Shown here in pieces: positions 1 through 18,405 of a stretch of DNA of 32,000 bases (the first letter of the stretch is position 1; each line of letters starts with the position of its first letter). The DNA lies in NCBI RefSeq assembly GCF_000341395.1, contig NC_020304.1, positions 3,360,001 through 3,392,000 of the forward strand, given 5' to 3'. Under the pieces are notes generated by a model. The model saw only the letters and a list, made by a program, of their open reading frames with translations, had not been told where the DNA came from and did no database searches. The stretch is from Desulfocapsa sulfexigens DSM 10523 (GTDB lineage Bacteria > Desulfobacterota > Desulfobulbia > Desulfobulbales > Desulfocapsaceae). A program made the translations under genes and the position numbers.

Positions 1-1125
1 GAAATAGATGCAGTTGGTGGTAGCCGTGCTGGAGGAAGCACGGCCAGTGGCCAGGACGAAAGAAGCCAGACCTTGAATGCACTCCTGGTCGAAATGGATG
101 GATTTTCGTCTACTGACACCATTATAGTGCTTGCAGCAACCAATAGACCAGATATCCTGGATCCAGCCCTGAGACGTCCAGGTCGTTTTGACAGACAGGT
201 CAACATCCTGCCACCTGACATCAAGGGCAGAAAACGAATCCTTAAGGTTCACAGTGCCAAAGTTGCTCTTGCCCCTGAAATCAACCTCGACAAAATTGCT
301 CATATGGTTCCCGGTTTTACTGGTGCAGAGCTGGCAAATCTTGTCAACGAAGCGGCCCTGATGGCTGCAAGAGAGCAAAAGAAAGTTGTTAGCCATCAAC
401 ATTTTGAGCAGGCCAGAGATCGCATACTTATGGGGGTTGAACGAAAGGGGAGAATAATGTCCGACGCTGATCGAGAGATTCTTGCCTACCATGAGGCAGG
501 TCACGCAATTGTTGCCAAAACCCTACCCGACGCTGACCCAATCCACAAAATAACCATCATCCCTCGTGGCCAGGCACTTGGCCAGACGCAGCAATTATCC
601 ATTAACGATAGAAGCAGTTATAACTTCAACTACCTGCGCAGTAGAATTGTTATTTTGATGGGTGGCAGAGCAGCAGAAGAGATTGCATTTGGACAACGTA
701 CTACAGGCGCCCAGGGGGACATTGTTCAAGCCACTGAAATTGCGACCAACATGATCTGCAAGTGGGGAATGAGCGATGTAATAGGTCCGCAGGCCATGGT
801 AATAGATAACGCAGGATTCCTTGGAGGCTCATCGCACCGTGTTGAAATGAGTGACAGGACATCGGAAGCAATTGACAAGGAGATAAAAAATCTCCTGGCG
901 TCCTGCCACGATGAAGCAGTAGTAATCATCAAAGAACAATACTACCTTCTCAAACAGCTTGCAGCCATACTCCTTGAGGTTGAAACCCTGGATGATGAGG
1001 AGTTCAACATCATCATGTCCTGTCAATTTAAGGAAAAAATTGCTGCAGGAATAAAAGAAACTCACGAGTGTGAAACCTGCCCTGCAGCTGACAGATGTAT
1101 TCATTCAAAGCTGAAGAAGGACTAG
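1..1125 (+). CDS. ftsH: ATP-dependent zinc metalloprotease FtsH, paralog 1 (5' end outside the window)
   Basis: Frame 1 is open from nt 1 (EIDAVGGSRAGG...[13 protein letters not shown]). It carries the AAA+ second region of homology ATNRPDILDPALRRPGRFDR, the zinc-protease motif HEAGHA, and IPRGQALG. It is collinear with, and roughly 55-60% identical by eye to, the complete FtsH at 12216-14039. The ORF-track start at 73 is an internal TTG. It ends in a Cys/His tail, HECETCPAADRCIH. Confidence 0.93.
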   Translation, partial: EIDAVGGSRAGGSTASGQDERSQTLNALLVEMDGFSSTDTIIVLAATNRPDILDPALRRPGRFDRQVNILPPDIKGRKRILKVHSAKVALAPEINLDKIAHMVPGFTGAELANLVNEAALMAAREQKKVVSHQHFEQARDRILMGVERKGRIMSDADREILAYHEAGHAIVAKTLPDADPIHKITIIPRGQALGQTQQLSINDRSSYNFNYLRSRIVILMGGRAAEEIAFGQRTTGAQGDIVQATEIATNMICKWGMSDVIGPQAMVIDNAGFLGGSSHRVEMSDRTSEAIDKEIKNLLASCHDEAVVIIKEQYYLLKQLAAILLEVETLDDEEFNIIMSCQFKEKIAAGIKETHECETCPAADRCIHSKLKKD

Positions 1126-1135
1126 GATAAAGAAA

Positions 1136-2041
1136 ATGCGGTCCTTAAAAAAAATGAGCTACCTCGTTTTCATGGGGGTAGCCCTTCTCCTCCTGTTGGT
1201 GATCATCTTCATTGTTCGCCAGTATCAACTGTCAGAACAATACGACACCATCATAACACAAAGCGAGAAGATGGTCTTTCAACTGCTGACGATACGGGAA
1301 CAACTCACCACTTCCCTTATCAAACAGGATTGGAAAGCCATCGCCACAACTGCAAACCAACTTGAAGATCTCAACTCTTCCATCGCAAGACTTCAGGAAA
1401 ATCCATTGATCCCAGGTGAGTTCAGACTTGGAATGGCACATCAAGTAGATGTCTCCGGTATAGCTATCGCTTCAAGAGAAATACTTTCAAGTTCTGACAA
1501 GCTTACAAACAGTCTTGTACTACAAGACAAGATGCGCAGTCTCACAGAATATCTTCTTCAGTTTGACCGTATTATAGGAAGTCAAATGCGTGCAAAAGTT
1601 GTGGCTTTCCAGACGGTAATGATAGGCGCACTTGGTGTGATCATTTGCCTAATAAGTTTTTCTCTTATTCTGCTCTACAAAAAGGCTTTAATCCCCCTCC
1701 TCCACCTTAAAAGACAAACCACGGACAACGATGTCATCAGCACTGGATTTCTGTATGACAAAAGCACCTGCTCAGAAATTACCATTTTTGTTGATTCTGT
1801 AAACTCACTACTCGATCAAATGAAAAACAGATCAGCAACTCAGGAACTTCCCCACACACTCAGCGATGAACTTGCTTCTATTATCAATGAAAGCAATAAT
1901 ATATCAAATGGAATCATCAATTATGCTCAATTGTTAAAGGATTCCTACCGTGAGGTTGAGATGGGAAATGAGGAGATGAAAATCCTCCAGAATATTATCG
2001 AAGGAGCTGAAAGAATCGCTCATCTTAACAAACAAATATAA
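1136..2041 (+). CDS. Two-TM membrane sensor-like protein with a DHp-only, His-less histidine-kinase remnant (pseudo-kinase; sensor paralog A)
   Basis: The ATG lies 10 nt after the ftsH stop. Predicted TM helices are at about res 8-27 and 155-180, around a ~130-aa helical loop homologous to the loop of the 16981 protein (ENPLIPGEFRL vs EDILIPEEFKL). The C-terminus INESNNISNGIINYAQ aligns 11/16 with the H-box AHEINNPINGIINYAQ of the 5975 kinase, but Asn251 (nt 1886-1888) replaces the phospho-His. The protein stops after DHp helix 2 and has no HATPase domain. Confidence 0.8.
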   Translation: MRSLKKMSYLVFMGVALLLLLVIIFIVRQYQLSEQYDTIITQSEKMVFQLLTIREQLTTSLIKQDWKAIATTANQLEDLNSSIARLQENPLIPGEFRLGMAHQVDVSGIAIASREILSSSDKLTNSLVLQDKMRSLTEYLLQFDRIIGSQMRAKVVAFQTVMIGALGVIICLISFSLILLYKKALIPLLHLKRQTTDNDVISTGFLYDKSTCSEITIFVDSVNSLLDQMKNRSATQELPHTLSDELASIINESNNISNGIINYAQLLKDSYREVEMGNEEMKILQNIIEGAERIAHLNKQI

Positions 2042-2397
2042 AACTCATTCTGTGCATATGATCAATGTTGGGCAAAACTTAACCTAACATATACTCTTTC
2101 CGATATTCATATAGCTTTAATATAACAAATTTTTTAAATATCTTCTTGCAAGTTTACATGATTTTTTTCAGTATTTTAGAAACAAATTAAGTTCACTGGC
2201 CATACTAATTTTCACTTGACACTACGCTATTATGGCAGTATGCATTGCCTCCAACAATCTCAAACACTACTAAGTAGTAGCATACCATGTGGTATTACTG
2301 GTAACGATTCCCAGTTATTATGCTATTTAGTAATGTAATTAAACGTTTTATTACCTCCTTCATTTCACGCTGACCCATATCTACCGGAGCACAAAAA

Positions 2398-5804: not shown

Positions 5805-5822
5805 CCGGCACGCCTTGTGCAT
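5805..5822 (+). promoter_or_regulatory. Sigma-54 (-24/-12) promoter, P1
   Basis: The sequence is ccGGCACgccttgTGCAt. GG at 5807-5808 and GC at 5819-5820 are separated by exactly 10 nt, and 6/6 of GGCACG match the consensus TGGCACG-N4-TTGCW. The core GGCAC-N6-TGCA is shared with P2 at 11245-11260. Confidence 0.65.
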
Positions 5823-5974: not shown

Positions 5975-7978
5975 ATGAACCCTTTTCGAAGAAATGAGAT
6001 CCTTCTCGCGATAAATGAACTTGCTGCCTCCGAAGCCGTAGAAGCTACCGGGGCCGACAAGTTGCTGAGGAAGTGTTGTGAAATTATCATGCAAAATCAT
6101 GAATATTGCCTTATATGGGCTGGAATTCGTGATGAAGATGGCGCTGCGATAACCCCTCTGGCAGCACTTACTTCTGCCAACATTCCCGATAGAGACTGTA
6201 TGTATCTCGTTGAGCAGGTTATCACCGACATGAGTTCAAGCAACCCTGCTGCCGAAGCACTCGTGTCTGGAACTAAAGTCATAATTCAGGATGTTCGTTC
6301 AACCAAACACTACAATTCCCTTCGCGAAATCTCTTTGAAAACCGGTTTCAGATCATGTTCTTCCTGGCCTCTTCTCTATATGGGGAGAGAATTTGGTATT
6401 ATTAACATTCACTCCGAAAAGGTTGATTGTTTTACTGATGAGGAAATTTCGTTTTTACAGGCGGTCGTCTCTGATATCGCCCTGGCTCTTTATACTCAGG
6501 ATATGACCAGGCGGATTCAAATAGAACGGGATTTCAACAGAGAAATGGTAGATACAATGCAAGCGCTTCTTATCTCTATTTCTCCCTGCGGAAAAATTTT
6601 ATCCTTTAACCAGAAGGCAGAAGAGGTGACTGGATACACTGAAGAAGAGGTCATTGACCGCTACTGGGTTGATGTCTTGATGGCTGAAGAAAATCGTAAG
6701 GCAGACCAACAACTTCTCACCCATGTACTGAAAGGTGAGACAGAACAGATGAATTTCGAATCATGCCTGCTTACGAAAGACTGTCAAAAGCGGTTTATCA
6801 ACTGGCACGCCTCTTTTCGACAGAATCTCGAAAAAGGAAAACTTGGGCTTGTCCTGTTTGGAATCGACATTACTGGGCAACTCCAAGTTGACCATGATCT
6901 TAAGCAGGCAATTTCACAATGGGAAAATATTTTTTCCGCAATTCAGGATCCAGCCCTCATTGTCTCAAAAGACTCCGTTATTCTTGATGCCAATCTGGCA
7001 ACATTCACAGCTGCACGGAAAACGCGCCCGGATGTCATTGGTCATAAAATATGCGACATTCTCCACCTCGGTCGCTCAACAAATGCACCCTGCCCTCTGG
7101 AACAGTTTATTGCAAAAGGTAAAAGCAGGATTATTGAAACTGAACTAAGAGGACTCCACGGTAACTATCTTCTTACCATCAGTCCTTTAAATATGAATGA
7201 CGGTGAAGAGGAAGCAGCCCTTCTTGTTGCCAGAGATTTAACAGAGGAAGAACTGATGAAGGCAGAAGCCATGCGCGCAGCTCAACTCGCCTCAGTGGGT
7301 GAGCTTGCAGCAGGTGTTGCCCATGAAATCAATAATCCCATAAATGGAATTATCAATTATGCCCAAATCATCCTCGACGACCCCGATGATCCAGACAATA
7401 GAGATCTGCTGGTACGAATAAAAAAAGAAGGAAAACGTATAGCATCGATAGTTTCGAATCTTCTCGATTTCTCAAGACGTGGTGAGGAATCGCCAGAAGA
7501 AGTTGCTATCCAAAGCATACTCAACAAGAGCCTGGAGCTTGTCAGTCACCGCTTTAACAACGATATGATACTTCTGGACATGCAACTCCCTGAAAACCTC
7601 CCTCTGGTTTACTGTAATTCTCAACAGATTCAACAGGTTTTCCTCAACATTCTCTCAAATGCCCGCTATGCCCTGAACGAAAAATTTCCAGGGCCAGATC
7701 CCAACAAGATCCTGACTGTTCGTGGTGAGACGATAATGCATGCAAAGGCCACTTATGTTCGTATTACCATAACAGATAACGGTTCTGGAATTGAACAGGA
7801 TTTAATCGATCGGGTTTTTGATCCATTTTACTCGAGTAAACCCAAAGGTGAAGGTACCGGTCTTGGCCTCTCCATCAGTCATGGACTCATTCAGGACAAC
7901 AAAGGATACCTCAGAATAGCCAGTGAACTCGGATCTTCAACATCCCTACTTGTTGATTTACCTATTTCTTCAAACTAA
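5975..7978 (+). CDS. Soluble GAF-PAS-PAS sensor histidine kinase (canonical catalytic core)
   Basis: No TM segments. The N-terminal ~170 aa are GAF-like and are followed by two PAS-like regions. H-box AHEINNPINGIINYAQ (His450, nt 7322-7324), N-box NILSNARYAL, G1 DNGSGI, F-box FDPFYS, G2 GEGTGLGLSIS. Confidence 0.9.
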   Translation: MNPFRRNEILLAINELAASEAVEATGADKLLRKCCEIIMQNHEYCLIWAGIRDEDGAAITPLAALTSANIPDRDCMYLVEQVITDMSSSNPAAEALVSGTKVIIQDVRSTKHYNSLREISLKTGFRSCSSWPLLYMGREFGIINIHSEKVDCFTDEEISFLQAVVSDIALALYTQDMTRRIQIERDFNREMVDTMQALLISISPCGKILSFNQKAEEVTGYTEEEVIDRYWVDVLMAEENRKADQQLLTHVLKGETEQMNFESCLLTKDCQKRFINWHASFRQNLEKGKLGLVLFGIDITGQLQVDHDLKQAISQWENIFSAIQDPALIVSKDSVILDANLATFTAARKTRPDVIGHKICDILHLGRSTNAPCPLEQFIAKGKSRIIETELRGLHGNYLLTISPLNMNDGEEEAALLVARDLTEEELMKAEAMRAAQLASVGELAAGVAHEINNPINGIINYAQIILDDPDDPDNRDLLVRIKKEGKRIASIVSNLLDFSRRGEESPEEVAIQSILNKSLELVSHRFNNDMILLDMQLPENLPLVYCNSQQIQQVFLNILSNARYALNEKFPGPDPNKILTVRGETIMHAKATYVRITITDNGSGIEQDLIDRVFDPFYSSKPKGEGTGLGLSISHGLIQDNKGYLRIASELGSSTSLLVDLPISSN

Positions 7979-7988
7979 GGAGTACCTG

Positions 7989-9110
7989 ATGAACAAAAAC
8001 TACCGAATTCCACTCCTGCTCTCAATTATGTTCTTATCGGTTGCCACTGTTTTGTATTTTTTTGATTTACGGATTTCTAACAGCTGCTCGACTGTTAACT
8101 ACATCCCTTACAATATCTGGTCCTTAGTTATTCTTTTTTTCCTATACGTCATTACAATTTTTCTTTTTTGGCGTGAATCAAAGATATTTAAAAGGAAAGA
8201 GGTAACCCTTCAGAAGAATCTAAAAATGGCTACTGACTCTTTAAATGATGTTCAGTCATCCTTGGATGATGCTGTCGAGAAAAAAACATTTGAAATGTCG
8301 GTCATCAATGGATCGCTTAACCGGGAAATTGCCGAACGAATTCAAGCAGAAGCCGAAGGCCTTAAACTGCGAAAACGACTCCACACTATTCTCGACTCTG
8401 CAGGAGATGGCATCTTTGGGATAGATCTCGAAGGAAAAGTAACTTTTGTTAACCTTAAAGCCACGGAATTACTCGGTTGGACAAGGGAAGAACTAATAGG
8501 CACATCACACCACGACCTGGTCCATCACACCCGCAGCAATGGCCAGGATTTTCCTGTTGAAGAGTGTCCAATTTATATGGCCTACAAGGATGGACAGATG
8601 CACTTTGAAAAGAACGACGTTTTCTGGAAAAAGTCGGGTGACAACTTTATGGTCGAATACACCTCAACACCACTTCTCGATAACGGTCAGATATCAGGTG
8701 CTGTTGTGGTTTTCAAAGACATATCAAGAACGAAGAGACTCGAACGGCAACTTGATTTGATCGTTAACTCCGCAGGAGAAGGAATTTTTGGACTCGACAC
8801 TAATGGCAATGTAACCTTCATGAACAAGGCAGCATCCATTATGCTCGGGTGGGAGATGAAGGAATTGATCGGTAAATCACATCATCAACTGGTCCACCAC
8901 AGCCATGCGGACGGAACAAAATACCAGGAGTCCGATTGTCCTATTTTCATGGCCTGTAAGGATGGACAGGTACATTTCAAATCAGACGATCTTTTCTGGA
9001 CAAAAGACGGAAGCAGCTTTCCGGTAGAGTATACTTCCACCCCTATCATTGAGGGTAAAACACTTACTGGCGCAGTAGTTGTATTCAGAGATTTAACAAC
9101 CTTTGCATGA
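7989..9110 (+). CDS. Membrane-anchored tandem-PAS protein with no output domain
   Basis: AAGGAG (7977-7982) lies 6 nt before ATG 7989, so the ORF-track start at 7923 would overlap the kinase gene and is rejected. There are two TM helices, a coiled-coil linker, then two ~50% identical PAS repeats (SAGDGIFGIDLEG...VVVFKDIS and SAGEGIFGLDTNG...VVVFRDLT). Each repeat carries SHHxLVHH-x3-(N/D)G-x7-CPI. The protein ends 6 residues after the second PAS. Confidence 0.88.
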   Translation: MNKNYRIPLLLSIMFLSVATVLYFFDLRISNSCSTVNYIPYNIWSLVILFFLYVITIFLFWRESKIFKRKEVTLQKNLKMATDSLNDVQSSLDDAVEKKTFEMSVINGSLNREIAERIQAEAEGLKLRKRLHTILDSAGDGIFGIDLEGKVTFVNLKATELLGWTREELIGTSHHDLVHHTRSNGQDFPVEECPIYMAYKDGQMHFEKNDVFWKKSGDNFMVEYTSTPLLDNGQISGAVVVFKDISRTKRLERQLDLIVNSAGEGIFGLDTNGNVTFMNKAASIMLGWEMKELIGKSHHQLVHHSHADGTKYQESDCPIFMACKDGQVHFKSDDLFWTKDGSSFPVEYTSTPIIEGKTLTGAVVVFRDLTTFA

Positions 9111-9161: not shown

Positions 9162-10979
9162 ATGGAAAATAATCCTGCAGTTGAAATACCGATCCTTGTC
9201 GTAGATGACGAAGAATCTCTGCGCCACACCTTTAAGATTTTTCTAAAACGTGAAGGCTATGGCCCAATTATACTCGCATCTAATTTCGAGGAAGCCGTAG
9301 GAGAACTGACAACCCGATCTTTTGATCTGGTAATCAGTGATATCGTCCTTGGCGGAAATTCAGGCATTGACCTTCTAAAACGAATAAGAGAACTGAATAT
9401 CACCTGCCCTGTCATAATGGTAACAGGATATCCACATGTCGATACTGCTTCAGAAGCTTTACGTTTTGGTGCCTTTGACTATATCCAGAAACCGGTAGAG
9501 AAAGATCAACTACTAAAGACGTCGCGGCTGGCCTTACAGCAATATAAACTTCAGCACGAGAAACAGAAAGCCGAAGAAGAAAAAGATCACTATCGAGCCT
9601 ACCTTGACACATTACTTAGAAGCGTTTCAGACAGTATCATCACAATAGACCAGGATCTGAACATTATTAAAATGAATCAGGCTGCTCGGTCTTTCTTCAG
9701 CCCCCTGAACCCCGCAATAAATGAGGGAGGCAATCTCTCAGTTGCGTGTGCTGATAAAAACAGCTGCTTCTTTAAAGAGGATGCTGAAAAAGTCCTGCGA
9801 TCAGGCATTGAAATCAAGGAGCACCGAATCGAATTCACAACTGAAACGATGGATCGAAAGGTTATAAGCATATGCATATCCCCTCTTGAAGATGGTCGTG
9901 GTAGCTTTCATGGCGTTGTCATCGTTATTCGTGATATGACATGTTTAATAGAGTCGGCAAGTTCCAAATTGCGTAGTTCCTTTCATCGAATGATCGGGGC
10001 AAGCCCGGCCATGCAGACTGTCTACACGATGATAGAAAATGTTGGGAAAGTTGATTCAGCAGTACTTATTACCGGAGAAAGTGGAACCGGAAAAGAACTT
10101 GCAACAGAAGCTCTGCACCTTGAAAGTCATCGTAAAAACAGACCACTCGTCAAGGTTGACTGTACGGCTATTCCCGAAAATCTCCTCGAAAGTGAACTTT
10201 TTGGTCATAAAAAAGGCTCGTTTACTGGCGCAGATCAGGATCGAATGGGAAGAATCCTTCAAGCCGATGGTGGCACACTCTTTCTCGACGAAATAGGTGA
10301 CATTCCTCCTATGATGCAACTGCGCCTCTTGCGATTCCTCCAGGAAAAAACCTTTTATCCAGTTGGTCGCGACACTTCCATTCAGGTGGATGTGAGAATT
10401 ATAGCCGCCACTAATGTAAATTTGCGGGAGAAGGTCCAACAGGGGAAATTTAGAGAGGATCTCTATTTTCGATTGAGAGTTATTGATATCATTCTGCCAC
10501 CTCTTCGAGAACGTGCCGGTGATATTCCGCTACTGGCAAATAATTTCATCCAACACTATTCCCGGAAAATGGGGAAGCCGGTATCTGGTATTTCAGATCA
10601 GGCTATGACATTGCTGACAAACTACACATGGCCTGGAAATATCAGAGAACTGGAACATGTTATTGAACGATCATGCGTGCTCTGCAATGGCTCGACGATT
10701 GCGAGTGAACAGCTTCCCATTGAAATTCAGAATCAAACAACTTTTCAGGACACTACAACCAGTTCACCACTACGACAGGGTGGCGAACTGCAGCATTCTG
10801 AAAAACCATTGTTTTCAGATCCTTTCCAGGGCAACAGTCCAGAAAGTAGAATCATTGCAGCACTGAAAAAAAGTGGTGGCAATAAGGCAAAAGCAGCCAG
10901 ACTGCTGTCCATTGATCGTTCAACCCTTTATCGAAAATTACGAGAAATGAAGATTGACCTTAGCACCTTCGACCTCTAA
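9162..10979 (+). CDS. Sigma-54-dependent response regulator (REC-PAS-AAA+-Fis HTH enhancer-binding protein)
   Basis: AGGAG RBS. REC domain with VVDDEES, phospho-Asp in LVISDIVL, and IQKP. A PAS-like middle region follows. Walker A GESGTGKE, sigma-54 contact loop GSFTGA (a variant of GAFTGA), Walker B LFLDEIG, C-terminal HTH RSTLYRKLRE. Confidence 0.93.
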   Translation: MENNPAVEIPILVVDDEESLRHTFKIFLKREGYGPIILASNFEEAVGELTTRSFDLVISDIVLGGNSGIDLLKRIRELNITCPVIMVTGYPHVDTASEALRFGAFDYIQKPVEKDQLLKTSRLALQQYKLQHEKQKAEEEKDHYRAYLDTLLRSVSDSIITIDQDLNIIKMNQAARSFFSPLNPAINEGGNLSVACADKNSCFFKEDAEKVLRSGIEIKEHRIEFTTETMDRKVISICISPLEDGRGSFHGVVIVIRDMTCLIESASSKLRSSFHRMIGASPAMQTVYTMIENVGKVDSAVLITGESGTGKELATEALHLESHRKNRPLVKVDCTAIPENLLESELFGHKKGSFTGADQDRMGRILQADGGTLFLDEIGDIPPMMQLRLLRFLQEKTFYPVGRDTSIQVDVRIIAATNVNLREKVQQGKFREDLYFRLRVIDIILPPLRERAGDIPLLANNFIQHYSRKMGKPVSGISDQAMTLLTNYTWPGNIRELEHVIERSCVLCNGSTIASEQLPIEIQNQTTFQDTTTSSPLRQGGELQHSEKPLFSDPFQGNSPESRIIAALKKSGGNKAKAARLLSIDRSTLYRKLREMKIDLSTFDL

Positions 10980-11306: not shown

Positions 11307-12212
11307 ATGCAGGCCATACATTTTCACATAGAAAGCTTTCCCAAGACTCTTGATGAGTTCAAGAGGCTTTTTAATAATGAAGAGAAAAGTCTGCGTTTTC
11401 TCTTTTCAAAAAGATGGCCTAACGGTTTCGAGTGCCCTTACTGCAACTGGCTTGATGACAACCTTATACCAACCAAGACTAGAACATGCGGTCATTGTGG
11501 TCACCCAACCTCAATTACCACCAACACAATCATGCATGGAACCAAAAAGCCACTTTCACAATGGCTTATCTCCATATACTGGCTCACATCGACAGCAGGC
11601 GGAAACAGTGCTAAAGATTTGCAGCGTCTGCTGAAACTTTCAAGCTACCAGACTGCATGGACATGGCTGCAAAAGCTGCGCATGGCCATGGCCATCGCAG
11701 ACAAAAAACGGTGTAGCAAAACAGTAGAGATTTCTTCCGATACCATTTCCCTAGGTGGCGAAGCCCACAATAAACCTCTTATTCTGGCCGCTGCTGAGAT
11801 AGTCCTTCCTGCCGGAATTACAGGGAGAATAAAAATGGCAACAATTAGCTCTTTTAACTCGGAAACCGTCAACTCCTTTCTTGAGCAACATGTTGCGCCT
11901 GGTGCCTCTCTTATCACACCAGAAGATACGCAATACAAACTCATTACTGGCAACAATTTCGTGACAATTACAGACCCTGCAATTTACCGAACTAAACAAA
12001 TAATCAAAAGTTTTGAGATCTGGATCAATAAGATTCACCGAGGTGGAGTTGCAGCAAAACACCTGCAACTTTATCTCGACGAGTTTTGTTTTCGACGCAA
12101 TGCTGAAATGCTGCCGGACAGAGAAGCAATATTTAACCTTCTTCTTTCAGGCGTAATCAGTAAAAAATCGCTCTCCTACAAAAGCATCATTTCGCAATCC
12201 ACAACGGAGTAG
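11307..12212 (+). CDS. IS1595-family transposase-like protein (N-terminal Zn-ribbon plus ISXO2-like domain), with no detectable IS ends
   Basis: AAGGAG RBS. Zn-ribbon RWPNGFECPYCNW...CGHCGH. VEISSDTISLGG resembles the first-Asp block vEvDEtyiGG, and the C-terminal KHLQLYLDEFCFRRN is the family signature. By eye, the second catalytic Asp position is Pro (LITPEDTQY), and the region before the Glu block is short. The stop lies 3 nt before the ftsH ATG. Confidence 0.7.
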   Translation: MQAIHFHIESFPKTLDEFKRLFNNEEKSLRFLFSKRWPNGFECPYCNWLDDNLIPTKTRTCGHCGHPTSITTNTIMHGTKKPLSQWLISIYWLTSTAGGNSAKDLQRLLKLSSYQTAWTWLQKLRMAMAIADKKRCSKTVEISSDTISLGGEAHNKPLILAAAEIVLPAGITGRIKMATISSFNSETVNSFLEQHVAPGASLITPEDTQYKLITGNNFVTITDPAIYRTKQIIKSFEIWINKIHRGGVAAKHLQLYLDEFCFRRNAEMLPDREAIFNLLLSGVISKKSLSYKSIISQSTTE

Positions 12213-12215
12213 AAT

Positions 12216-14039
12216 ATGTCTCAAATCCAGACAGGATTATTGGTCCTTCTTCTTACTTTCCTTGGTGTTGTTGGATACAACGTCTATCTTCACGAAACTA
12301 CTCCCAATGATATTTCGTACACCGAGTTCGTAGAACTGCTTGAAGACGGTAAAATAAAAGATATACACCTCAAGGGTGGTGTCGTTACTGGTACAGACCT
12401 GACCCTCCATGAGTTCAGCTCTTTTATTGTTGACCTCCCTTCCATTCTCCCCCTAATTGAACGTCAGGGAGTAACAATCACAGCAGAAAAGGATAGTGAG
12501 ACTCTCAGCGGCTTTATGCAATCAATGGTTCCAGTCTTTCTTATTCTTGGCGGTTATCTTATTTTTTCAAGAATGCAGAAAGGTGATAAAGGTGGATTCG
12601 GAAAAAACAAAAGCCGCTCTTTTCACCCTAAAAAGAATACAGGAGTCACTTTTGACGACGTAGCTGGTATCAGTGAAGCCAGAACTGAGCTCGTTGAGAT
12701 TGTAGACTCATTAAAAAATCCTGAAAAATTCTCAAGGCTTGGCGGATATGTGCCAAAGGGAGTTCTCCTCCAGGGCCCTCCAGGAACCGGAAAAACTCTC
12801 CTTGCCAAGGCAATAGCCGGGGAAGCCTTAGTCCCCTTTTATTCCATTGGCGGATCCGATTTTGTTGAAATGTTTGTTGGTGTTGGGGCGTCACGGGTTC
12901 GGGAGCTTTTTACCGAAGCCAAAAAGAATTCACCATGCATCATATTTATAGATGAAATTGATGCCATAGGCGGAAAACGAAGTGGCGGAAATGCTACCGG
13001 ATCAAACGACGAACGTGAACAGACATTGAATGCGCTGCTGGTCGAGATGGATGGATTCGATTCTAACGAAACCGTTATCATCATTGGGGCAACAAACCGT
13101 CCTGACATGCTTGATCCTGCACTTTTAAGGCCCGGACGTTTTGATCGCCAGGTAACTATATCATTGCCGGATGTAAAGGGACGCCGCAACATTCTTGAGG
13201 TCTATGCAAAAAAAATAGTTATGTCTCCCAGTGTCAATCTGTCAGAGATTGCGCGATCAATCCCAGGGTTCAGTGGTGCTGAAATTGCCAACCTCGTCAA
13301 TGAGGCTGCTCTAACTGCAGCCCGTTACAACAAAAAGGCTGTTGAAACATCAGATTTTGATGAGGCAAAAGACAAGATAAGTCTCGGTCTCGAACGTAAA
13401 AATGTTGTCATCAATGAAAAAGACCGCAGGGTCACAGCATATCATGAAGCTGGCCATGCGATTACAGCAAAACTTTTGCCCGACACCGATCCCGTACACA
13501 AGATATCCATTATTCCTCGTGGGCAAGCCCTTGGCCTTACCCAGCAATTGCCTCTTGCTGATAAACACACCTACTCTCGTGACTATCTCCTTAACAGAAT
13601 CAAAATACTCATGGGTGGCAGAATAGCAGAGGAAATAATTTTTGATCATCAAACTACAGGTGCCAGCAATGATCTCGTTGGAGCAACTGAGATTGCCAGT
13701 CGTTTTGTCTGTGAATTCGGCATGAGTTCAACTATTGGCCCAATCGCCTACATGCAGGAACAGGGTGGTTTTCTAGGCGGAACAAGCACGATGAAACCCT
13801 ACAGCGAAAAAACTGCAGAACGCATCGATAATGAAATCAAAAGGGTTATTGAACAATGCTATGTGGAAACAACAGAACTTCTGACTCAGAACAGTAAATT
13901 TCTCCACAAACTCGCTGAGGCCCTTCTTGTCAACGAAACCGTGGATGGTGAAGAATTCGATATCGTCCATAACTGTTATATAAACGAAAAAAATATTGAA
14001 AAAAATTTAAAGAATAAACGCAAGGAGGAACGGCTTTAA
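12216..14039 (+). CDS. ftsH: ATP-dependent zinc metalloprotease FtsH, paralog 2 (complete)
   Basis: 607 aa with two N-terminal TM helices flanking a ~75-aa loop. Walker A GPPGTGKT, Walker [38 protein letters not shown]. The RBS ACGGAG lies inside the preceding ORF. Confidence 0.95.
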
Positions 14040-14098
14040 AAATGAAATGATTACAGGATCACCCTGAAGTTTTGATTCATTAAAAAGGAGGAAATTTA

Positions 14099-14635
14099 AT
14101 GCGAACACGAAAGAAAATCATGAGGACAGCGTTAGCGCTTACCGTTGGTTCCTTTATGATAACACCCATCACAGCGTGGTCAATGGAGGCGTCCGATGCT
14201 CCAGAAACTGTCACCATCGACAGTATGAGTAAGTTGTACGGGCCGGTGGAATTTGATCATAGTATGCACGTTGGATACGCCAGTTGTCAGGAATGCCATC
14301 ATCACACAACCGGTGAAGTTGTAGCTGACCCGAACTGTGCCCGCTGTCACAACAGCGCAGATGAAAATGATGTTGTCAGCTGCAGTGAGTGTCATGAAGC
14401 TAACAGGTTTAACGAAAAATATCTTAAAACCCTTGAAGACCCAAAGCTTTACCACATTGACAAGCCTGGTCTGAAAGGTGCGTACCACCTCAATTGTGTT
14501 GGGTGCCATACCATCACATCTGGACCAACTGGATGTGTAGATTGTCATGCCATGACAGAGGATGGAGAGAAGATGTTTAATACGGGAGCTTTTGCCCCTG
14601 CTAAAGGAACATCATCCTCTGGTCAGAAACATTGA
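14099..14635 (+). CDS. Periplasmic cytochrome c3-family multiheme cytochrome (five CxxCH motifs)
   Basis: AAGGAGG RBS and a signal peptide. VEFDHSMHVGYASCQECHHH is a typical c3 heme-1 block. Motifs: CQECH, CARCH, CSECH, CVGCH, CVDCH. Confidence 0.9.
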   Translation: MRTRKKIMRTALALTVGSFMITPITAWSMEASDAPETVTIDSMSKLYGPVEFDHSMHVGYASCQECHHHTTGEVVADPNCARCHNSADENDVVSCSECHEANRFNEKYLKTLEDPKLYHIDKPGLKGAYHLNCVGCHTITSGPTGCVDCHAMTEDGEKMFNTGAFAPAKGTSSSGQKH

Positions 14636-14674
14636 TCAGAACATCCAGTGACCAGTTTTATGAGAGGAAAAAAA

Positions 14675-15640
14675 ATGAAAAAACTATTTAGCCGTAGAAA
14701 TTTTCTAAAAGGCGGGCTTGCAACGACAGCAGCCGCCGCGGTACTTAAAAATAAAGAAACCAAGGCATCGGGTGACTTCGAAGGATATCCCGATGGCATG
14801 GGTGTACTCGTAGACCTGACCCGTTGTGTTGGCTGCCGATCATGTGAAGCCGCATGTAACAAGGAACAGGAACTTCCAGAACCAGCAAAACCATTCACCG
14901 ATTTTTCAATCTTCGACGAAATGCATCATGGTCAGAAAAGACGCACGGACGAAACAGCTTACACCGTAGTCAATCGGTACGATGTACCAGAACTCGACCA
15001 TCCACTATTCAGGAAATTTCAATGTAATCATTGCCAGGAACCAGCATGCCTCACCTCCTGCTTTGTTAATGCTTATACAAAAACACCTGAAGGTGCTGTT
15101 ATCTATAACTCTAAGGTCTGTGTTGGCTGCAGAACCTGTATGATAGCCTGCCCCTTCTACGTACCAACCTTTAAATATTCCAGTGCATTCAGTCCTAAAA
15201 TCATGAAGTGTGTATTCTGTTACGATACCCGCCTTAAAGAAGGAAAAGCCCCTGCATGTGTTGAGGCATGCCCACAGGAAGCATTGACCTTTGGCAAGCG
15301 TGTTGACTGTATCGATATGGGTCGCCAGCGTATTCGTGAAACTCCTGGGAAATATGTTGATCATATTTATGGCGAGCATGAGGTTGGAGGTACTGCCTGG
15401 ATGTATCTTTCCAGTGTACCTTTTGATAAAGTTGGTTTTGATACCCACGTCCCAAAAGAACCTATCATTAATTCAGTTAAAGACTTCCTTGCCATGGTAC
15501 CAATGGTACTCACCATCTGGCCTGGACTCTTTGTAGGATTCCACTTACTGGCTACACGGAAAGAGAAAATGATGGAAATGGAAAAAGAAAAAGAACTTGC
15601 CAAACAAAAAGCAACCGATGAGAAGGAGGAGCAGGTATGA
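14675..15640 (+). CDS. Tat-exported 4Fe-4S subunit with a C-terminal membrane anchor (HybA/HmcB/DsrO-like)
   Basis: The preferred start is ATG 14675, 6 nt after GAGAGGA, giving MKKLFSRRNFLKGG, a classic Tat signal. The ORF-track GTG at 14648 is less likely. Cys clusters: CVGCRSCEAAC, CNHCQEPACLTSC, CVGCRTCMIACP, CVFC...CVEACP. It has a C-terminal TM helix (FLAMVPMVLTIWPGLFVGFHLLA) and a K/E-rich tail. Confidence 0.9.
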   Translation: MKKLFSRRNFLKGGLATTAAAAVLKNKETKASGDFEGYPDGMGVLVDLTRCVGCRSCEAACNKEQELPEPAKPFTDFSIFDEMHHGQKRRTDETAYTVVNRYDVPELDHPLFRKFQCNHCQEPACLTSCFVNAYTKTPEGAVIYNSKVCVGCRTCMIACPFYVPTFKYSSAFSPKIMKCVFCYDTRLKEGKAPACVEACPQEALTFGKRVDCIDMGRQRIRETPGKYVDHIYGEHEVGGTAWMYLSSVPFDKVGFDTHVPKEPIINSVKDFLAMVPMVLTIWPGLFVGFHLLATRKEKMMEMEKEKELAKQKATDEKEEQV

Positions 15641-16890
15641 AACTCTTTTCAAAAGAACGACCTGATATTCCAATCGTCAACCATCTCAAAGCAGATGGTA
15701 CAGAGTGGACAGTTAAAGAAAAACTCTGGTTAGGCCTGTCAGTATCAGAGTACAAAAAACAGTTTTTCAGAAATCCTGTAAACTGGCTGATGATAGCAAT
15801 TTTTGCTGTTGGTGTTCCACTTATTGTTGGACGTTATATCTTTGGTCTTGGCTGGGTAACCCATGCCTCCAATGACTATCCCTGGGGTCTTTTTCTTGGA
15901 TTCGGACTTTTTGGAATGGTCCCACTTTCAGCATCAGGATTTATGCTTGGAACAACAGTAGAGCTTTTTGGCAGAAAAGATTTTCATGCCATTGAACGCT
16001 TAGCCCTGCTCAACGGTCTTCTCGGTTACTTCTTTGCTGTACTGTTCCTTGAGGTTGACCTTGGCATGCCATGGCGTCTTCCTTACCCTATGTTCGTGTC
16101 TCTAGGACCTGCTGCCGTACTTTTTCTTGTTGCATGGCATGTTGCCACCTATCTTTCTGTTCAAATAGCAGAAGTACTCCCTGCCTTTTTTGAGTGGATT
16201 GGCTGGCTCAAAGGAAAACGTATAATCAGGAAGTATGTTCTTGGACTCACAGTAGCAGGAATTATCCTTTCTACACTCCATCAGGGAGCTCTGGGTGCAT
16301 TATTCACCTATGCACCTGCAAAAGTCCATCCATTATGGCTGTCGGTGAATTTCCAATGGATACATTTTTTCTGCTCATCTATTTTTGCAGGATTATCCAT
16401 GGTCATAATTGCATCAACACTAATTAAAAACTTCATGGGATGGCGCTGTGATGATGAATTCAAAGACAATCTTGACTACATCACCATAGGACTGGCAAAA
16501 GGTGCTTCATATGCCATGATAACATACCTGATCATCAAAATAGTTGCGGTTGCTCATGACCAGGAATGGTCATATCTTCTCACCGGATGGGGCAGTTACT
16601 ACATGTTGGAACTTGGCGTTGCAGTGGTACTTCCAATGTTTATGTTTGCCATTGGTATCAGGAATAAATGGGTAACACTCATTAGATTCGGTGCCTTTAT
16701 TGCTGCATTTGGTATCATCTGGAATCGTCTGAACACTGCTCTTATTTGTTACAACTGGCAGATGTATCAGGAAATTCCTCACTGGAAGGAAGTGTGGATA
16801 ACGATTACAATTTACTCACTCTATTTCCTGACCTACCGCTTTATCGTCTATCGCCTTCCCATCGTATATGGATGGAAGGGTGAAAAATAA
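15637..16890 (+). CDS. NrfD/HybB/DsrP-family polytopic membrane subunit
   Basis: ATGA overlap with the FeS gene stop. 417 aa with about 10 TM helices. The N-terminal block YPWGLFLGFGLFGMVPLSASGF is typical of this family. Confidence 0.85.
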   Translation: MKLFSKERPDIPIVNHLKADGTEWTVKEKLWLGLSVSEYKKQFFRNPVNWLMIAIFAVGVPLIVGRYIFGLGWVTHASNDYPWGLFLGFGLFGMVPLSASGFMLGTTVELFGRKDFHAIERLALLNGLLGYFFAVLFLEVDLGMPWRLPYPMFVSLGPAAVLFLVAWHVATYLSVQIAEVLPAFFEWIGWLKGKRIIRKYVLGLTVAGIILSTLHQGALGALFTYAPAKVHPLWLSVNFQWIHFFCSSIFAGLSMVIIASTLIKNFMGWRCDDEFKDNLDYITIGLAKGASYAMITYLIIKIVAVAHDQEWSYLLTGWGSYYMLELGVAVVLPMFMFAIGIRNKWVTLIRFGAFIAAFGIIWNRLNTALICYNWQMYQEIPHWKEVWITITIYSLYFLTYRFIVYRLPIVYGWKGEK

Positions 16891-16980: not shown

Positions 16981-18405
16981 ATGAGAAACTTTCTTTCAAA
17001 ACTATCCTTGAAACGTATATTCTCTCTTTTTACTGTCACAACCATAGTCCTGCTTTTCATTGTGATCTTCTTTGCAGGAAAACAGTATTTTCTCTTTCGA
17101 CATTGCGAAAAACTTGTTGACTCAAGCCAGCATCTCCTCTTTCAATTTACCGGAATAAAAGAACACATAAACGAAACCCTGCTCAGTAACGGCACACTGA
17201 ACACTCCTGAAATAAACAAGGAAATCCAAAGCCTCGACTCACAGTTACAACATATACTGGAAGACATTCTCATTCCCGAGGAATTCAAACTTAACTTTAT
17301 CAGTCAGCTCGATCTTGTAAATATCACAGTGGCATTGAGGAATTTGCAAAACAGCACTCCTCCGATCAATAACGAGCAGTTGGCGACACTTTCTGCCCAA
17401 CTCCGTAGTGTCAATTCAAAACTCACCGGTTTTCATGAATTGATAAGCAGATACACCCAGACGCAGCTCCTGGGACTTCATAAAGCACTTGTTGGACTCC
17501 TTTCAATCGTAATTGCTTTGGTGAGCATCATGCTTCTCACCATAAATCGATATATAACCTCCCCCATCCTTCATTATTGCCGGACACGTTCTCCGAGTGA
17601 AACAGAGCCAGTAACTCTCTTTTCCCTACATAAAACAATCGAAACATTGGCAGACAATCCTGTTGCAGGATCGGTAACTAGCCCAGATGACAGTCTTGAG
17701 TTGACACGTCTCTACAGATACAGCTCAATAGGACACTTGCTTGGAGGGCTCAGTCATGAACTGACAAATATTTCGAATGGTATTCTTAATTACACCCAGG
17801 CAATTATTGACCTGAGTAATGATTCTAATTTAGATGCGGACTCTCGACAGCTACTGCACAAACTTTTTGTTGAAGAAAAAAAGATGTCTCAGCTTCTGAG
17901 CAATATGATTGCTTTTACAAGTGGTAGTGCCCAGGGACAGGCAAAAGTACTTTCTGTTGAAGAACTTTTTGAAAACATTAGGACACTCGTTCACGGAACC
18001 TTTAAAAGTGAACAAATAAACCTCAATATTAAACTCAGCAATCCGGCATTTATGCTGAAAAACCATGTAAGTGATTTACAACTTGTCATCCTTTCTGCCA
18101 TACAAAATAGCCGAACGGCCCTCAATTATCGTTATGTGGGGGTTGTCCCCGAGTCAGAAAAGAAAACAATACAGCTCTCCTTCGACGAACCTCTCCAGAA
18201 TAGCAACAGCATATGTGTCGAGATTCTTGATAACGGTGCCAGTCATTCTAAAACGGCAGATGGGAGTAAAACGACCAGGCCATGGCACAATATGAATGTC
18301 TGCAAAAGTTTTCTTCAGACCTTTGGCGGAACCCTTGAGCTCACCAGAACGAGTGACAAAACCAATCGTTGCCTTATCTGTCTTCCTTTATCAAAAGATA
18401 ATTAA
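16981..18405 (+). CDS. Two-TM sensor histidine-kinase-like protein with an intact H-box but degenerate ATP-binding boxes (sensor paralog B)
   Basis: It has the same TM / 130-aa loop / TM layout as the 1136 protein, and the loop is homologous. H-box LSHELTNISNGILNYTQ, N-box ILSAIQNSRTAL. G1 is DNGASH instead of DNGxGI. No F-box or GxGLGL G2 is present (RPWHNMNVCKSF in that position). Confidence 0.85.
   Translation: MRNFLSKLSLKRIFSLFTVTTIVLLFIVIFFAGKQYFLFRHCEKLVDSSQHLLFQFTGIKEHINETLLSNGTLNTPEINKEIQSLDSQLQHILEDILIPEEFKLNFISQLDLVNITVALRNLQNSTPPINNEQLATLSAQLRSVNSKLTGFHELISRYTQTQLLGLHKALVGLLSIVIALVSIMLLTINRYITSPILHYCRTRSPSETEPVTLFSLHKTIETLADNPVAGSVTSPDDSLELTRLYRYSSIGHLLGGLSHELTNISNGILNYTQAIIDLSNDSNLDADSRQLLHKLFVEEKKMSQLLSNMIAFTSGSAQGQAKVLSVEELFENIRTLVHGTFKSEQINLNIKLSNPAFMLKNHVSDLQLVILSAIQNSRTALNYRYVGVVPESEKKTIQLSFDEPLQNSNSICVEILDNGASHSKTADGSKTTRPWHNMNVCKSFLQTFGGTLELTRTSDKTNRCLICLPLSKDN

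Follow-up and report, generated by a model that had tools for sequence, protein, structure and literature searches.

Pseudo-histidine kinases have been described in a handful of individual cases, such as RocA, DivL and RcsD, and as laboratory mutants. RcsD is a sensor-kinase homologue that has become a non-kinase signalling partner of real kinases. DivL is likewise described as a sensor-kinase homologue repurposed as a non-kinase partner of real kinases (PMC4211667). RocA of Streptococcus pyogenes, which acts with CovS/CovR, is a membrane-bound sensor-kinase homologue that needs no autophosphorylation; it interacts with the real kinase and changes phosphorylation of the regulator, and a form lacking the catalytic domain complements (PMC7028121). 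Here we describe UWK_03028, a gene of Desulfocapsa sulfexigens DSM 10523 that lies within a stretch of 32,000 nucleotides (contig NC_020304.1, positions 3,360,001 to 3,392,000; hereafter the window). By its sequence relationships and conservation, the product falls within the pseudo-histidine kinases and kinase-like accessory regulators represented by RocA, DivL and RcsD: it descends from a kinase, has lost kinase competence and is kept by selection. It belongs to a natural, order-wide family reduced to a sensor, a HAMP-like segment and a DHp hairpin, with the same His-to-Asn change as in the phosphatase-only form of NtrB.

Protein architecture and loss of kinase competence

The open reading frame at 1136..2041 encodes 301 amino acids and is identical to UWK_03028, a hypothetical protein; our literature search found no paper naming it or its neighbors UWK_03027, UWK_03029 and UWK_03030. 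The order of domains is a first transmembrane (TM) helix, a periplasmic helical sensor, a second TM helix, a HAMP-like segment and a DHp hairpin, directly followed by the stop. The features of the gene and of the spacer behind it are:

1136..2041, forward strand: pseudo-histidine-kinase gene UWK_03028, 301 amino acids
1157..1216, forward strand: TM1, residues ~8-27, a hydrophobic stretch within AlphaFold2 helix 2-62
1217..1606, forward strand: periplasmic helical sensor domain, residues ~28-157, from AlphaFold2 helices
1607..1678, forward strand: TM2, residues ~158-181, from sequence and AlphaFold2 model
1682..1828, forward strand: HAMP-like segment, residues ~183-231, modeled as helix, connector and helix, with conserved columns
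1829..1855, forward strand: variable linker of low model confidence (pLDDT below 50), residues 232-240, with indels and the least conserved columns
1856..2035, forward strand: DHp helical hairpin, helix 1 = residues 241-272 and helix 2 = residues 278-300, from AlphaFold2, alignments and profile comparison
2042..2397, no strand: AT-rich intergenic region without a catalytic-domain remnant, from tblastn and conservation

Alignments and profiles identify UWK_03028 as a descendant of a sensor histidine kinase that lacks both the catalytic domain and a phosphorylatable histidine. Codon 1886-1888 is AAT and places Asn251 at the phospho-acceptor position. When INESNNISNGIINYAQ of UWK_03028 is set against AHEINNPINGIINYAQ of the GAF-PAS kinase encoded from position 5975 (the 5975 kinase), the kinase histidine falls on Asn251 and a hand count gives 11/16 identical residues. 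Plain BLASTP between the two proteins found nothing significant (E 36 for the H-box segment) because the motif is short, and homology was therefore shown by profiles. A profile built from 22 divergent homologues was compared by hhalign with the PAS-kinase family of the locus, and residues 242-304 aligned with the DHp of those kinases at a probability of 97.6% and E 4.3e-12, again with the histidine on Asn251. The Pfam HisKA model gave E 0.09 on UWK_03028, below threshold, and E 0.0015 on a paralogue at locus L001. Homology to a 474-amino-acid paralogue in the window (16981-18405) extends over the full length (24% identity, E 2e-26). By these comparisons UWK_03028 retains a DHp hairpin homologous to HisKA.

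The protein ends 36 residues past the H-box motif, at the end of DHp helix 2 in the AlphaFold2 model (mean pLDDT 74), in which the two hairpin helices are the terminal ones. Pfam found no HATPase_c match in UWK_03028. The 356 nt downstream are 32% GC and have stops in all frames; tblastn found no similarity to catalytic domains there, and there was no frameshift. An earlier sequence-only reading of the window had made the same 11/16 count, had placed Asn at 1886-1888 and the stop right after DHp helix 2, and had described the 356 nt as AT-rich and free of any catalytic remnant; all four observations held up. A protein of this composition would be unable to autophosphorylate or to accept phosphate.

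In the family alignment, sensor-domain residues F48, P93, D105, R134, D144 and R145 are conserved. The top Foldseek matches in the PDB were a NarQ sensor-TM-HAMP fragment and four-helix-bundle sensor domains, with TM-scores of ~0.6 and weak E-values, and we use them as support for the architecture only. The segment after TM2 has an invariant Pro187 and an invariant Glu214, and close orthologues also keep its Gly204. A sequence profile search of the PDB aligned TM2 and this segment with TM2-HAMP of the chemoreceptor PcaY (E 0.011). The Pfam scan gave no HAMP match, and every family in the Pfam and NCBIfam scans of the protein stayed below threshold. The segment at residues 183-231 is HAMP-like by these measures, not a proven HAMP domain.

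Two other identities were considered and rejected. Calmodulin matches, which dominated the PDB profile list at E 0.05-0.7 only, raised the possibility of an EF-hand calcium-binding loop. The ligand positions are Asn/Thr and Gln, where an EF-hand has acidic residues (loop positions 1 and 12); AlphaFold2 models the segment as one uninterrupted helix, and ordinary kinase H-boxes carry the same motif. The matches were set aside as chance similarity of the NG-I-NY motif. A phosphotransferase of the Spo0B, ChpT or Hpt type does not fit either, there being no His at the site and no conservation of His239 and His296.

Conservation and selection

A homologue search found 280 close homologues, and among the best 120 of the 280 nearly all are 301 amino acids long. 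Asn251 and most of helix 1 are invariant in 28 orthologues that are 60-82% identical to UWK_03028. A search of 1.84 billion cluster representatives yielded only 168 related clusters, which form three length classes. In the shortest class, ~296-320 amino acids long (about 30 clusters at 50% identity), the residue at the His position is always Asn. Proteins of ~430-505 amino acids vary at this position (H, N, Q, S, A); among the members tested, five are true kinases with His and HATPase_c, and five others have no HATPase_c match, three of them with N, Q or S at the His position. In the class of ~580-915 amino acids, additional domains follow the same sensor module. Scanning species-representative genomes gave 148 relatives, all in the Desulfobulbales, and to judge from these genomes the short-class family is confined to that order. 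Short homologues were counted in 80 loci kept from the species-representative genomes together with earlier metagenome loci; Asn occupies the His position in 85/85, and all of them end 33-44 residues after the motif.

The ratio of nonsynonymous to synonymous substitution rates (dN/dS, Nei-Gojobori) was 0.063 in the comparison with a 98% relative, 0.033 with an 83% relative and 0.084 with a 72% relative. Values for the DHp alone were 0.03-0.05 in the comparisons with usable dS, the DHp dS against the 98% relative being too small to inform. The N-terminal half with the sensor domain gave ~0.06-0.07, and linker 232-240 gave the highest values of the protein, 0.17-0.33. Because all 85 short homologues keep Asn and the stop, and dN/dS is 0.03-0.08, UWK_03028 is best described as an intact gene under strong selection and not a decaying pseudogene. 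The sequence-only reading had suggested a conserved, selected DHp-only pseudo-kinase and had proposed an ortholog comparison with dN/dS well below 1 as a check; the comparison bears it out.

Among short-class members only 25-57% identical to UWK_03028, ten columns are invariant. Four of these are Asn251 (codon 1886-1888), Asn255 (1898-1900), Asn258 (1907-1909) and Asn262 (1919-1921), which lie on one face of helix 1 and correspond to His, His+4 (the phosphatase residue), His+7 and His+11. Residue 256, at His+5, is Ile/Leu or others, not Pro. Periplasmic and HAMP-like positions are also among the invariant columns, and with an N-terminal dN/dS of ~0.06 they indicate that the sensor half is still in use.

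Some genomes carry a second ftsH with a 306-309-amino-acid paralogue of UWK_03028 (L001, 2902-3831; L026, 1204-2124; L029, 902-1831). These paralogues are 31-33% identical to UWK_03028, have Asn at the His position and end after the DHp, and their start overlaps the ftsH stop by 17 nt.

Ancestry of the gene

In L088 and L089, from a groundwater metagenome and a metagenome-assembled genome, the gene order is a receiver-PAS kinase, a sigma-54 regulator, three or four small genes (four called; three match the small-protein reference), ftsH and P0140; L092 has the same arrangement. P0140 is a protein of 488 amino acids with the same sensor module as UWK_03028, a His, HisKA and HATPase_c. Its gene starts 3 nt past the ftsH stop and is followed in L088 by a NapC/NirT-type cytochrome gene. 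Three further full-length relatives (P0147, P0162 and P0209) lie on contigs too short for gene context. Since a full kinase occupies the same post-ftsH slot elsewhere, UWK_03028 is a derived, kinase-dead form of that sensor. The comparison implies that the slot once held a working kinase and that the Desulfobulbales form lost the catalytic domain and changed the His to Asn.

The sequence-only reading had named as its contrary case a full-length kinase with His at this locus in close relatives, combined with relaxed selection. Such a kinase does occur in the slot, in a more distant lineage, and selection is not relaxed, with dN/dS at 0.03-0.08. The soluble kinase of L088 carries a receiver domain at its N-terminus; the PAS kinases of the Desulfobulbales have none. 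This difference hints that the link between membrane protein and soluble kinase changed from phosphotransfer to contact, one such lineage having been seen whole.

The conserved locus

Neighbors of UWK_03028 were counted as species with the neighbor over species with enough flank. These neighbors, and the part of ftsH that falls in the window, are:

Within 3.3 kb upstream: tandem genes for ~70-amino-acid single-TM proteins, 71/71 species
Directly upstream: ftsH paralogue, 69/73 species
In the upstream block: NtrC-type sigma-54 response regulator, 57/62 species
In the upstream block: soluble PAS-HisKA-HATPase kinase, 51/62 species
Downstream: cytochrome c7 (with NrfD and NrfC), 40/69 species
Downstream: 5975-type GAF-PAS kinase, 3/60 species
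73..1125, forward strand: 3' part of the ftsH paralogue, with AAA, lid and M41 peptidase carrying HEAGH, from Pfam

The window begins within ftsH, so the genes upstream of it lie outside, and UWK_03023, which precedes UWK_03028 by five locus tags, is the first of the small proteins. A full-length orthologue of the upstream FtsH passes TIGR01241. The ftsH stop is 10 nt before the UWK_03028 start, and the gap is -17 to +17 nt in most loci. The C-terminal tail of FtsH (1021-1098) contains four Cys, at codons 1021, 1069, 1078 and 1096, in the pattern C...CxxCPAxxxC. The motif is kept in most FtsH proteins linked to UWK_03028 homologues across the order and is absent from ftsH2, the second paralogue in the window; the tail may be metal- or redox-sensitive.

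The pair of ftsH and UWK_03028 lies directly downstream of the block of PAS kinase, sigma-54 regulator and small genes. Two to six small genes stand in tandem and encode single-TM products of ~65-75 amino acids (L005, 6924-7938, and equivalent places in L001-L086), which have a polar N-terminus, a Cys conserved in the TM helix and an SGGP motif, and which matched no Pfam or NCBIfam family. The first small gene is preceded, at a distance of 70-135 nt in the loci examined, by a sigma-54-type promoter, TGGCAC-N5-TTGCA, and a scan of 86 loci found 101 intergenic matches of this type. In the 98% relative a terminator with a 14-bp stem follows the last small gene and a TTGACT-18-TATAAT promoter precedes ftsH; terminator-like hairpins between the last small gene and ftsH were found in 34/68 loci. 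UWK_03028 had been considered a member of the small genes' sigma-54 unit, and that assignment was revised after the terminator and the near-consensus sigma-70-type promoter were found. Because these two elements precede ftsH, ftsH and UWK_03028 probably form their own two-gene unit beside the sigma-54-driven small genes.

By its Pfam domains, the PAS kinase itself lacks an input from the membrane or the periplasm. L069 and L079 have the regulator, the small genes and a UWK_03028 homologue with no adjacent PAS kinase or ftsH, and L068 has the homologue with the regulator and small genes and no adjacent ftsH.

The spacer at 2042-2397 probably serves to regulate the cytochrome c7, NrfD and NrfC genes behind it. 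We found no terminator after UWK_03028 in these 356 nt and no known RNA in Rfam. Relatives with saturated synonymous sites are 82% identical to one another in the spacer, and its conserved blocks include TTGACAC and the palindromes CTACTAAGTAGTAG (2267-2280) and ATACCATGTGGTAT (2282-2295). A gene for a NapC/NirT-type multihaem cytochrome of ~480-490 amino acids stands directly after the homologue or full kinase in L069 (8923-10386), L079 (8917-10392) and L088 (8732-10168); the L069 and L079 copies overlap the stop of the homologue. Taken with the cytochrome c7 of the window, the gene order suggests a recurrent link of this sensor family with periplasmic electron carriers.

The 5975 kinase and a second module in the window

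Farther downstream the window holds a second set of related genes:

5806-5821: sigma-54-type promoter-like site CGGCACGCCTTGTGCA, 169 nt upstream of the GAF-PAS kinase gene, with a similar site in close relatives
5975..7978, forward strand: GAF-PAS-PAS-HisKA-HATPase kinase, from Pfam
7923-9110: protein anchored in the membrane that has two PAS domains but lacks an output domain, encoded between the GAF-PAS kinase and its sigma-54 regulator; since the GTG listed as its start falls within the end of the kinase gene, the real start is probably further downstream
9162-10979: sigma-54 regulator, after the PAS-PAS protein
11245: sigma-54-type promoter TGGCACCGTATGTGCA, 62 nt upstream of the IS1595-like gene
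11307-12212: IS1595-family transposase-like gene, 301 amino acids, in the same position in all close relatives
12216-14039: ftsH2, starting 3 nt after the stop of the IS1595-like gene
16981..18405, forward strand: 474-amino-acid UWK_03028 paralogue with the same sensor-TM-HAMP module, last gene of the second ftsH module

The IS1595-like gene looks fixed, and possibly domesticated, rather than a mobile insertion. After ftsH2 come genes for a cytochrome c, an NrfC with a twin-arginine translocation (TAT) signal, an NrfD-like protein and the 474-amino-acid paralogue (12216-16890, then 16981-18405). This paralogue keeps the His (LSHELTNISNG) and matches HisKA weakly; an N box and DxG can be recognized in its catalytic-like region, but the G2 box and a Pfam HATPase_c match are missing. 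It may be a second, less advanced pseudo-kinase. In other lineages the second type of module ends in a true long kinase. The 5975 kinase thus appears to belong to a second, parallel module with its own kinase-like membrane protein, and the 474-amino-acid paralogue is a more natural companion for it than UWK_03028.

The sequence-only reading had taken the H-box of UWK_03028 as a mimic of that of the 5975 kinase. The motif proves generic to the DHp subfamily: the PAS kinase of every locus reads AHEVNNP[IM][TN]GIIN[FY]AQLL, NGIINYAQLL is found exactly in many lineages, and H-boxes of the NGIINYAQ type are common to the PAS kinase, the 474-amino-acid paralogue and the full-length relatives, P0140 included. 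Over the DHp, UWK_03028 shares 21/55 positions with the PAS kinase, in both helices (score 86), and 13/23 with the 5975 kinase, in helix 1 only (score 67), so the PAS kinase is the closer of the two over the whole domain. In its DHp-catalytic part, P0140 shares ~40% identity with the soluble kinases of the locus. The pattern points to shared descent within one DHp subfamily, kept by selection, and not to mimicry of one neighbor.

Proposed function and alternatives

The role that we tentatively favor, at a little less than an even chance, is that of a kinase-dead sensor acting through its DHp face on the sigma-54 regulator of the locus, as a phosphatase or a trap. The retained face would dock the receiver domain of the regulator, and a membrane-bound homodimer would dephosphorylate or trap it under the control of the periplasmic sensor. 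The soluble PAS kinase would supply phosphate and UWK_03028 a signal-dependent opposing activity. More speculatively, the co-translated FtsH might control the level of UWK_03028 or act on the small membrane proteins. The most sensible reading of the locus is that a signal from the periplasm or the membrane reaches a two-component pair in the cytoplasm through UWK_03028, most likely by contact and not by phosphorylation. That much survives of the earlier proposal that a periplasmic signal is coupled to a cytoplasmic kinase; the 5975 kinase as the partner does not, being linked downstream in just 3/60 species when other neighbors are conserved.

Docking to a receiver is the most likely contact because the most constrained part of the protein is the helix 1 face that holds the His, phosphatase and specificity residues. 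The regulator-specificity positions are His+7, +11 and +12 (EnvZ T250/L254/A255; the HK853-RR468 complex). The Asn/Thr expected at His+4 is present as the invariant Asn255. In HisKA kinases the N/T at His+4 is needed only for phosphatase activity, which the His enhances and which does not require it (PMC3510030), and NtrB H139N has been described as phosphatase only (bioRxiv 10.1101/122606). The short class is always Asn at a position that varies in the relatives of 430-505 amino acids, which argues for a specific role of this Asn. The linkage data are also in favor of the regulator as partner, as it accompanies the gene more often (57/62) than the PAS kinase does (51/62), and L069 and L079 keep the regulator, the small genes and the homologue with neither PAS kinase nor ftsH adjacent.

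Several observations weigh against a phosphatase or trap on the regulator. Full phosphatase activity of many kinases needs the catalytic domain, which is gone here. The Pro at His+5 is replaced by Ile/Leu, and the equivalent change in CrdS, P376A, cut phosphatase activity strongly (PMC3510030). Because the linker between HAMP and DHp is variable and predicted to be disordered, rigid transmission from sensor to DHp is doubtful, and a tether would be a better fit than a switch. The PAS kinase has the same conserved residues in its DHp, and a heterodimer or a pseudo-substrate would keep them too. The tightest physical linkage is to ftsH and not to the regulator.

The main rival names the PAS kinase as partner. 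The His-less DHp could pair with the DHp of the upstream soluble PAS kinase, or its Asn face could serve as a pseudo-substrate for the catalytic domain of that kinase, so that the soluble kinase would be tethered to the membrane and come under control of the periplasmic sensor. This is the mechanism of the sequence-only reading with another partner, and we consider it a serious candidate though on balance unlikely. The DHps of the two families align in both helices (NGIINYAQLL.D and II..GERIA motifs) with the E-value of 4.3e-12 given above, the PAS kinase lacks any membrane or periplasmic input and is linked in 51/62 species, and the receiver domain on the soluble kinase of L088, absent in Desulfobulbales, would fit a change from phosphotransfer to contact, in a single lineage. 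Such pairing nevertheless leaves the constant Asn unexplained, as relatives with degenerate catalytic regions tolerate Q, S and A, and paralogous kinases usually evolve away from heterodimers. L069 and L079, moreover, keep the gene without an adjacent PAS kinase. No lineage-specific covariation of the two DHps was seen, an uninformative result because helix 1 of UWK_03028 is invariant. Precedents for pairing are FasC, in which TM plus DHp suffice for heterodimerization with FasB (PMC12675982), and a frameshift in the catalytic domain of ChrS, whose product heterodimerizes with HrrS (PMC9491836). The coupling to ftsH, for its part, would be accounted for if the chief role of UWK_03028 were that of an adaptor for the co-translated protease, a regulator of it or a substrate under its control, with the DHp as just a dimerization or docking element; in one version it would be an anti-activator destroyed by FtsH on membrane or redox stress. 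The ftsH gene is directly upstream in 69/73 species with stop and start overlapping or nearly abutting, the pairing recurs in three paralogous modules (including L001 2902-3831 and the window's ftsH2 with the 474-amino-acid paralogue), the linked FtsH has its own conserved four-Cys tail, and the terminator and near-consensus sigma-70-type promoter before ftsH in close relatives suggest a two-gene unit. Against this, the ancestral occupant of the slot was apparently a working kinase whose job was phosphotransfer and not protease control, the residues under the strongest constraint belong to the kinase-regulator interface, and L068, L069 and L079 keep the gene with regulator and small genes without an adjacent ftsH. 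Given the kinase ancestry and the conserved residues, a role centered on FtsH is less likely, indeed improbable, although the tight coupling needs an explanation.

A decoy or adaptor for the 5975 kinase itself, as first proposed, is very unlikely. The 11/16 H-box identity extends to identical residues at His+7, +11 and +12, and the genes are 4 kb apart in D. sulfexigens and its closest relatives. The linkage is however limited to 3/60 species and absent from L001, the similarity is confined to helix 1 and no better than to other kinases of the subfamily, and the sigma-54-type promoter after the regulator of the 5975 kinase precedes the second ftsH module, which has a kinase-like protein of its own. 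That UWK_03028 is a decaying pseudogene or a truncated allele without function has a negligible probability. The loss of His and catalytic domain and the full-length kinase in the same slot elsewhere are what one would cite for it; length, stop and Asn are conserved across the order in 85/85, dN/dS is 0.03-0.08, and there is neither a frameshift nor a downstream remnant.

To return to the phosphatase or trap on the regulator, a broader picture is possible, though at less than an even chance: UWK_03028, the four-Cys FtsH, the PAS kinase, the sigma-54 regulator and the small proteins would make up one undescribed envelope or redox stress circuit of the Desulfobulbales, in which a phosphatase-only or anti-kinase receptor, evolved from a true kinase, signals by contact through its His-less DHp. 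The recurrent, unannotated module of a Cys-tail ftsH paralogue, small membrane proteins with a sigma-54 promoter and cytochrome/NrfCD genes may matter for how sulfur-disproportionating bacteria maintain membrane or redox homeostasis. The ancestral full kinase in the same slot elsewhere, and the intermediates with degenerate catalytic regions, one of them in the window, form a ready evolutionary series. This series could show how a kinase becomes a regulator that works by contact only, and which DHp residues serve docking as opposed to catalysis.

Comparison with known systems

The DHp of EnvZ alone reportedly has phosphatase activity. NtrB (NRII) H139N carries the same His-to-Asn change as UWK_03028 and is a phosphatase-only protein (10.1101/122606), and UWK_03028 retains the E at +1 and the N at +4 of the NtrB-type H-box. 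Both of these are engineered mutants or fragments, whereas UWK_03028 is natural, membrane-anchored and order-wide, and has also lost the Pro at His+5. Among proteins that act by contact, FasC with FasB in S. pyogenes and the ChrS frameshift variant of Corynebacterium glutamicum resemble it in that a TM-plus-DHp protein heterodimerizes with a paralogous kinase (PMC12675982; PMC9491836). FasC, however, needs its own His246, which is phosphorylated by the partner, and UWK_03028 has no such His; the ChrS variant is a laboratory mutation and not a conserved natural family.

RocA differs in having a dispensable His, a degenerate catalytic domain and six TM helices, and in lacking a large periplasmic sensor, a HAMP and the linkage to ftsH; its sequence relation to UWK_03028 is that of the histidine kinase fold only. 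RcsD and DivL both extend beyond the DHp and have kept a catalytic-like domain. In RcsD phosphate is relayed by way of an Hpt domain, and in DivL a Tyr occupies the His site, where UWK_03028 has Asn.

The nearest relatives are P0140 of L088/L089 and the 474-amino-acid paralogue of the window, which share the sensor-TM-HAMP module and the NGIINY-type DHp (29% and 24% full-length identity, respectively) and which either follow ftsH or close an ftsH module. P0140 differs in its His and intact HATPase_c, and the paralogue in its His and a degenerate catalytic region. As far as these comparisons indicate, UWK_03028 is set apart from other pseudo-kinases by its end after the DHp, the invariant Asn in a stripe of four Asn, the coupling to ftsH and the full-kinase ancestor still visible in the same slot.

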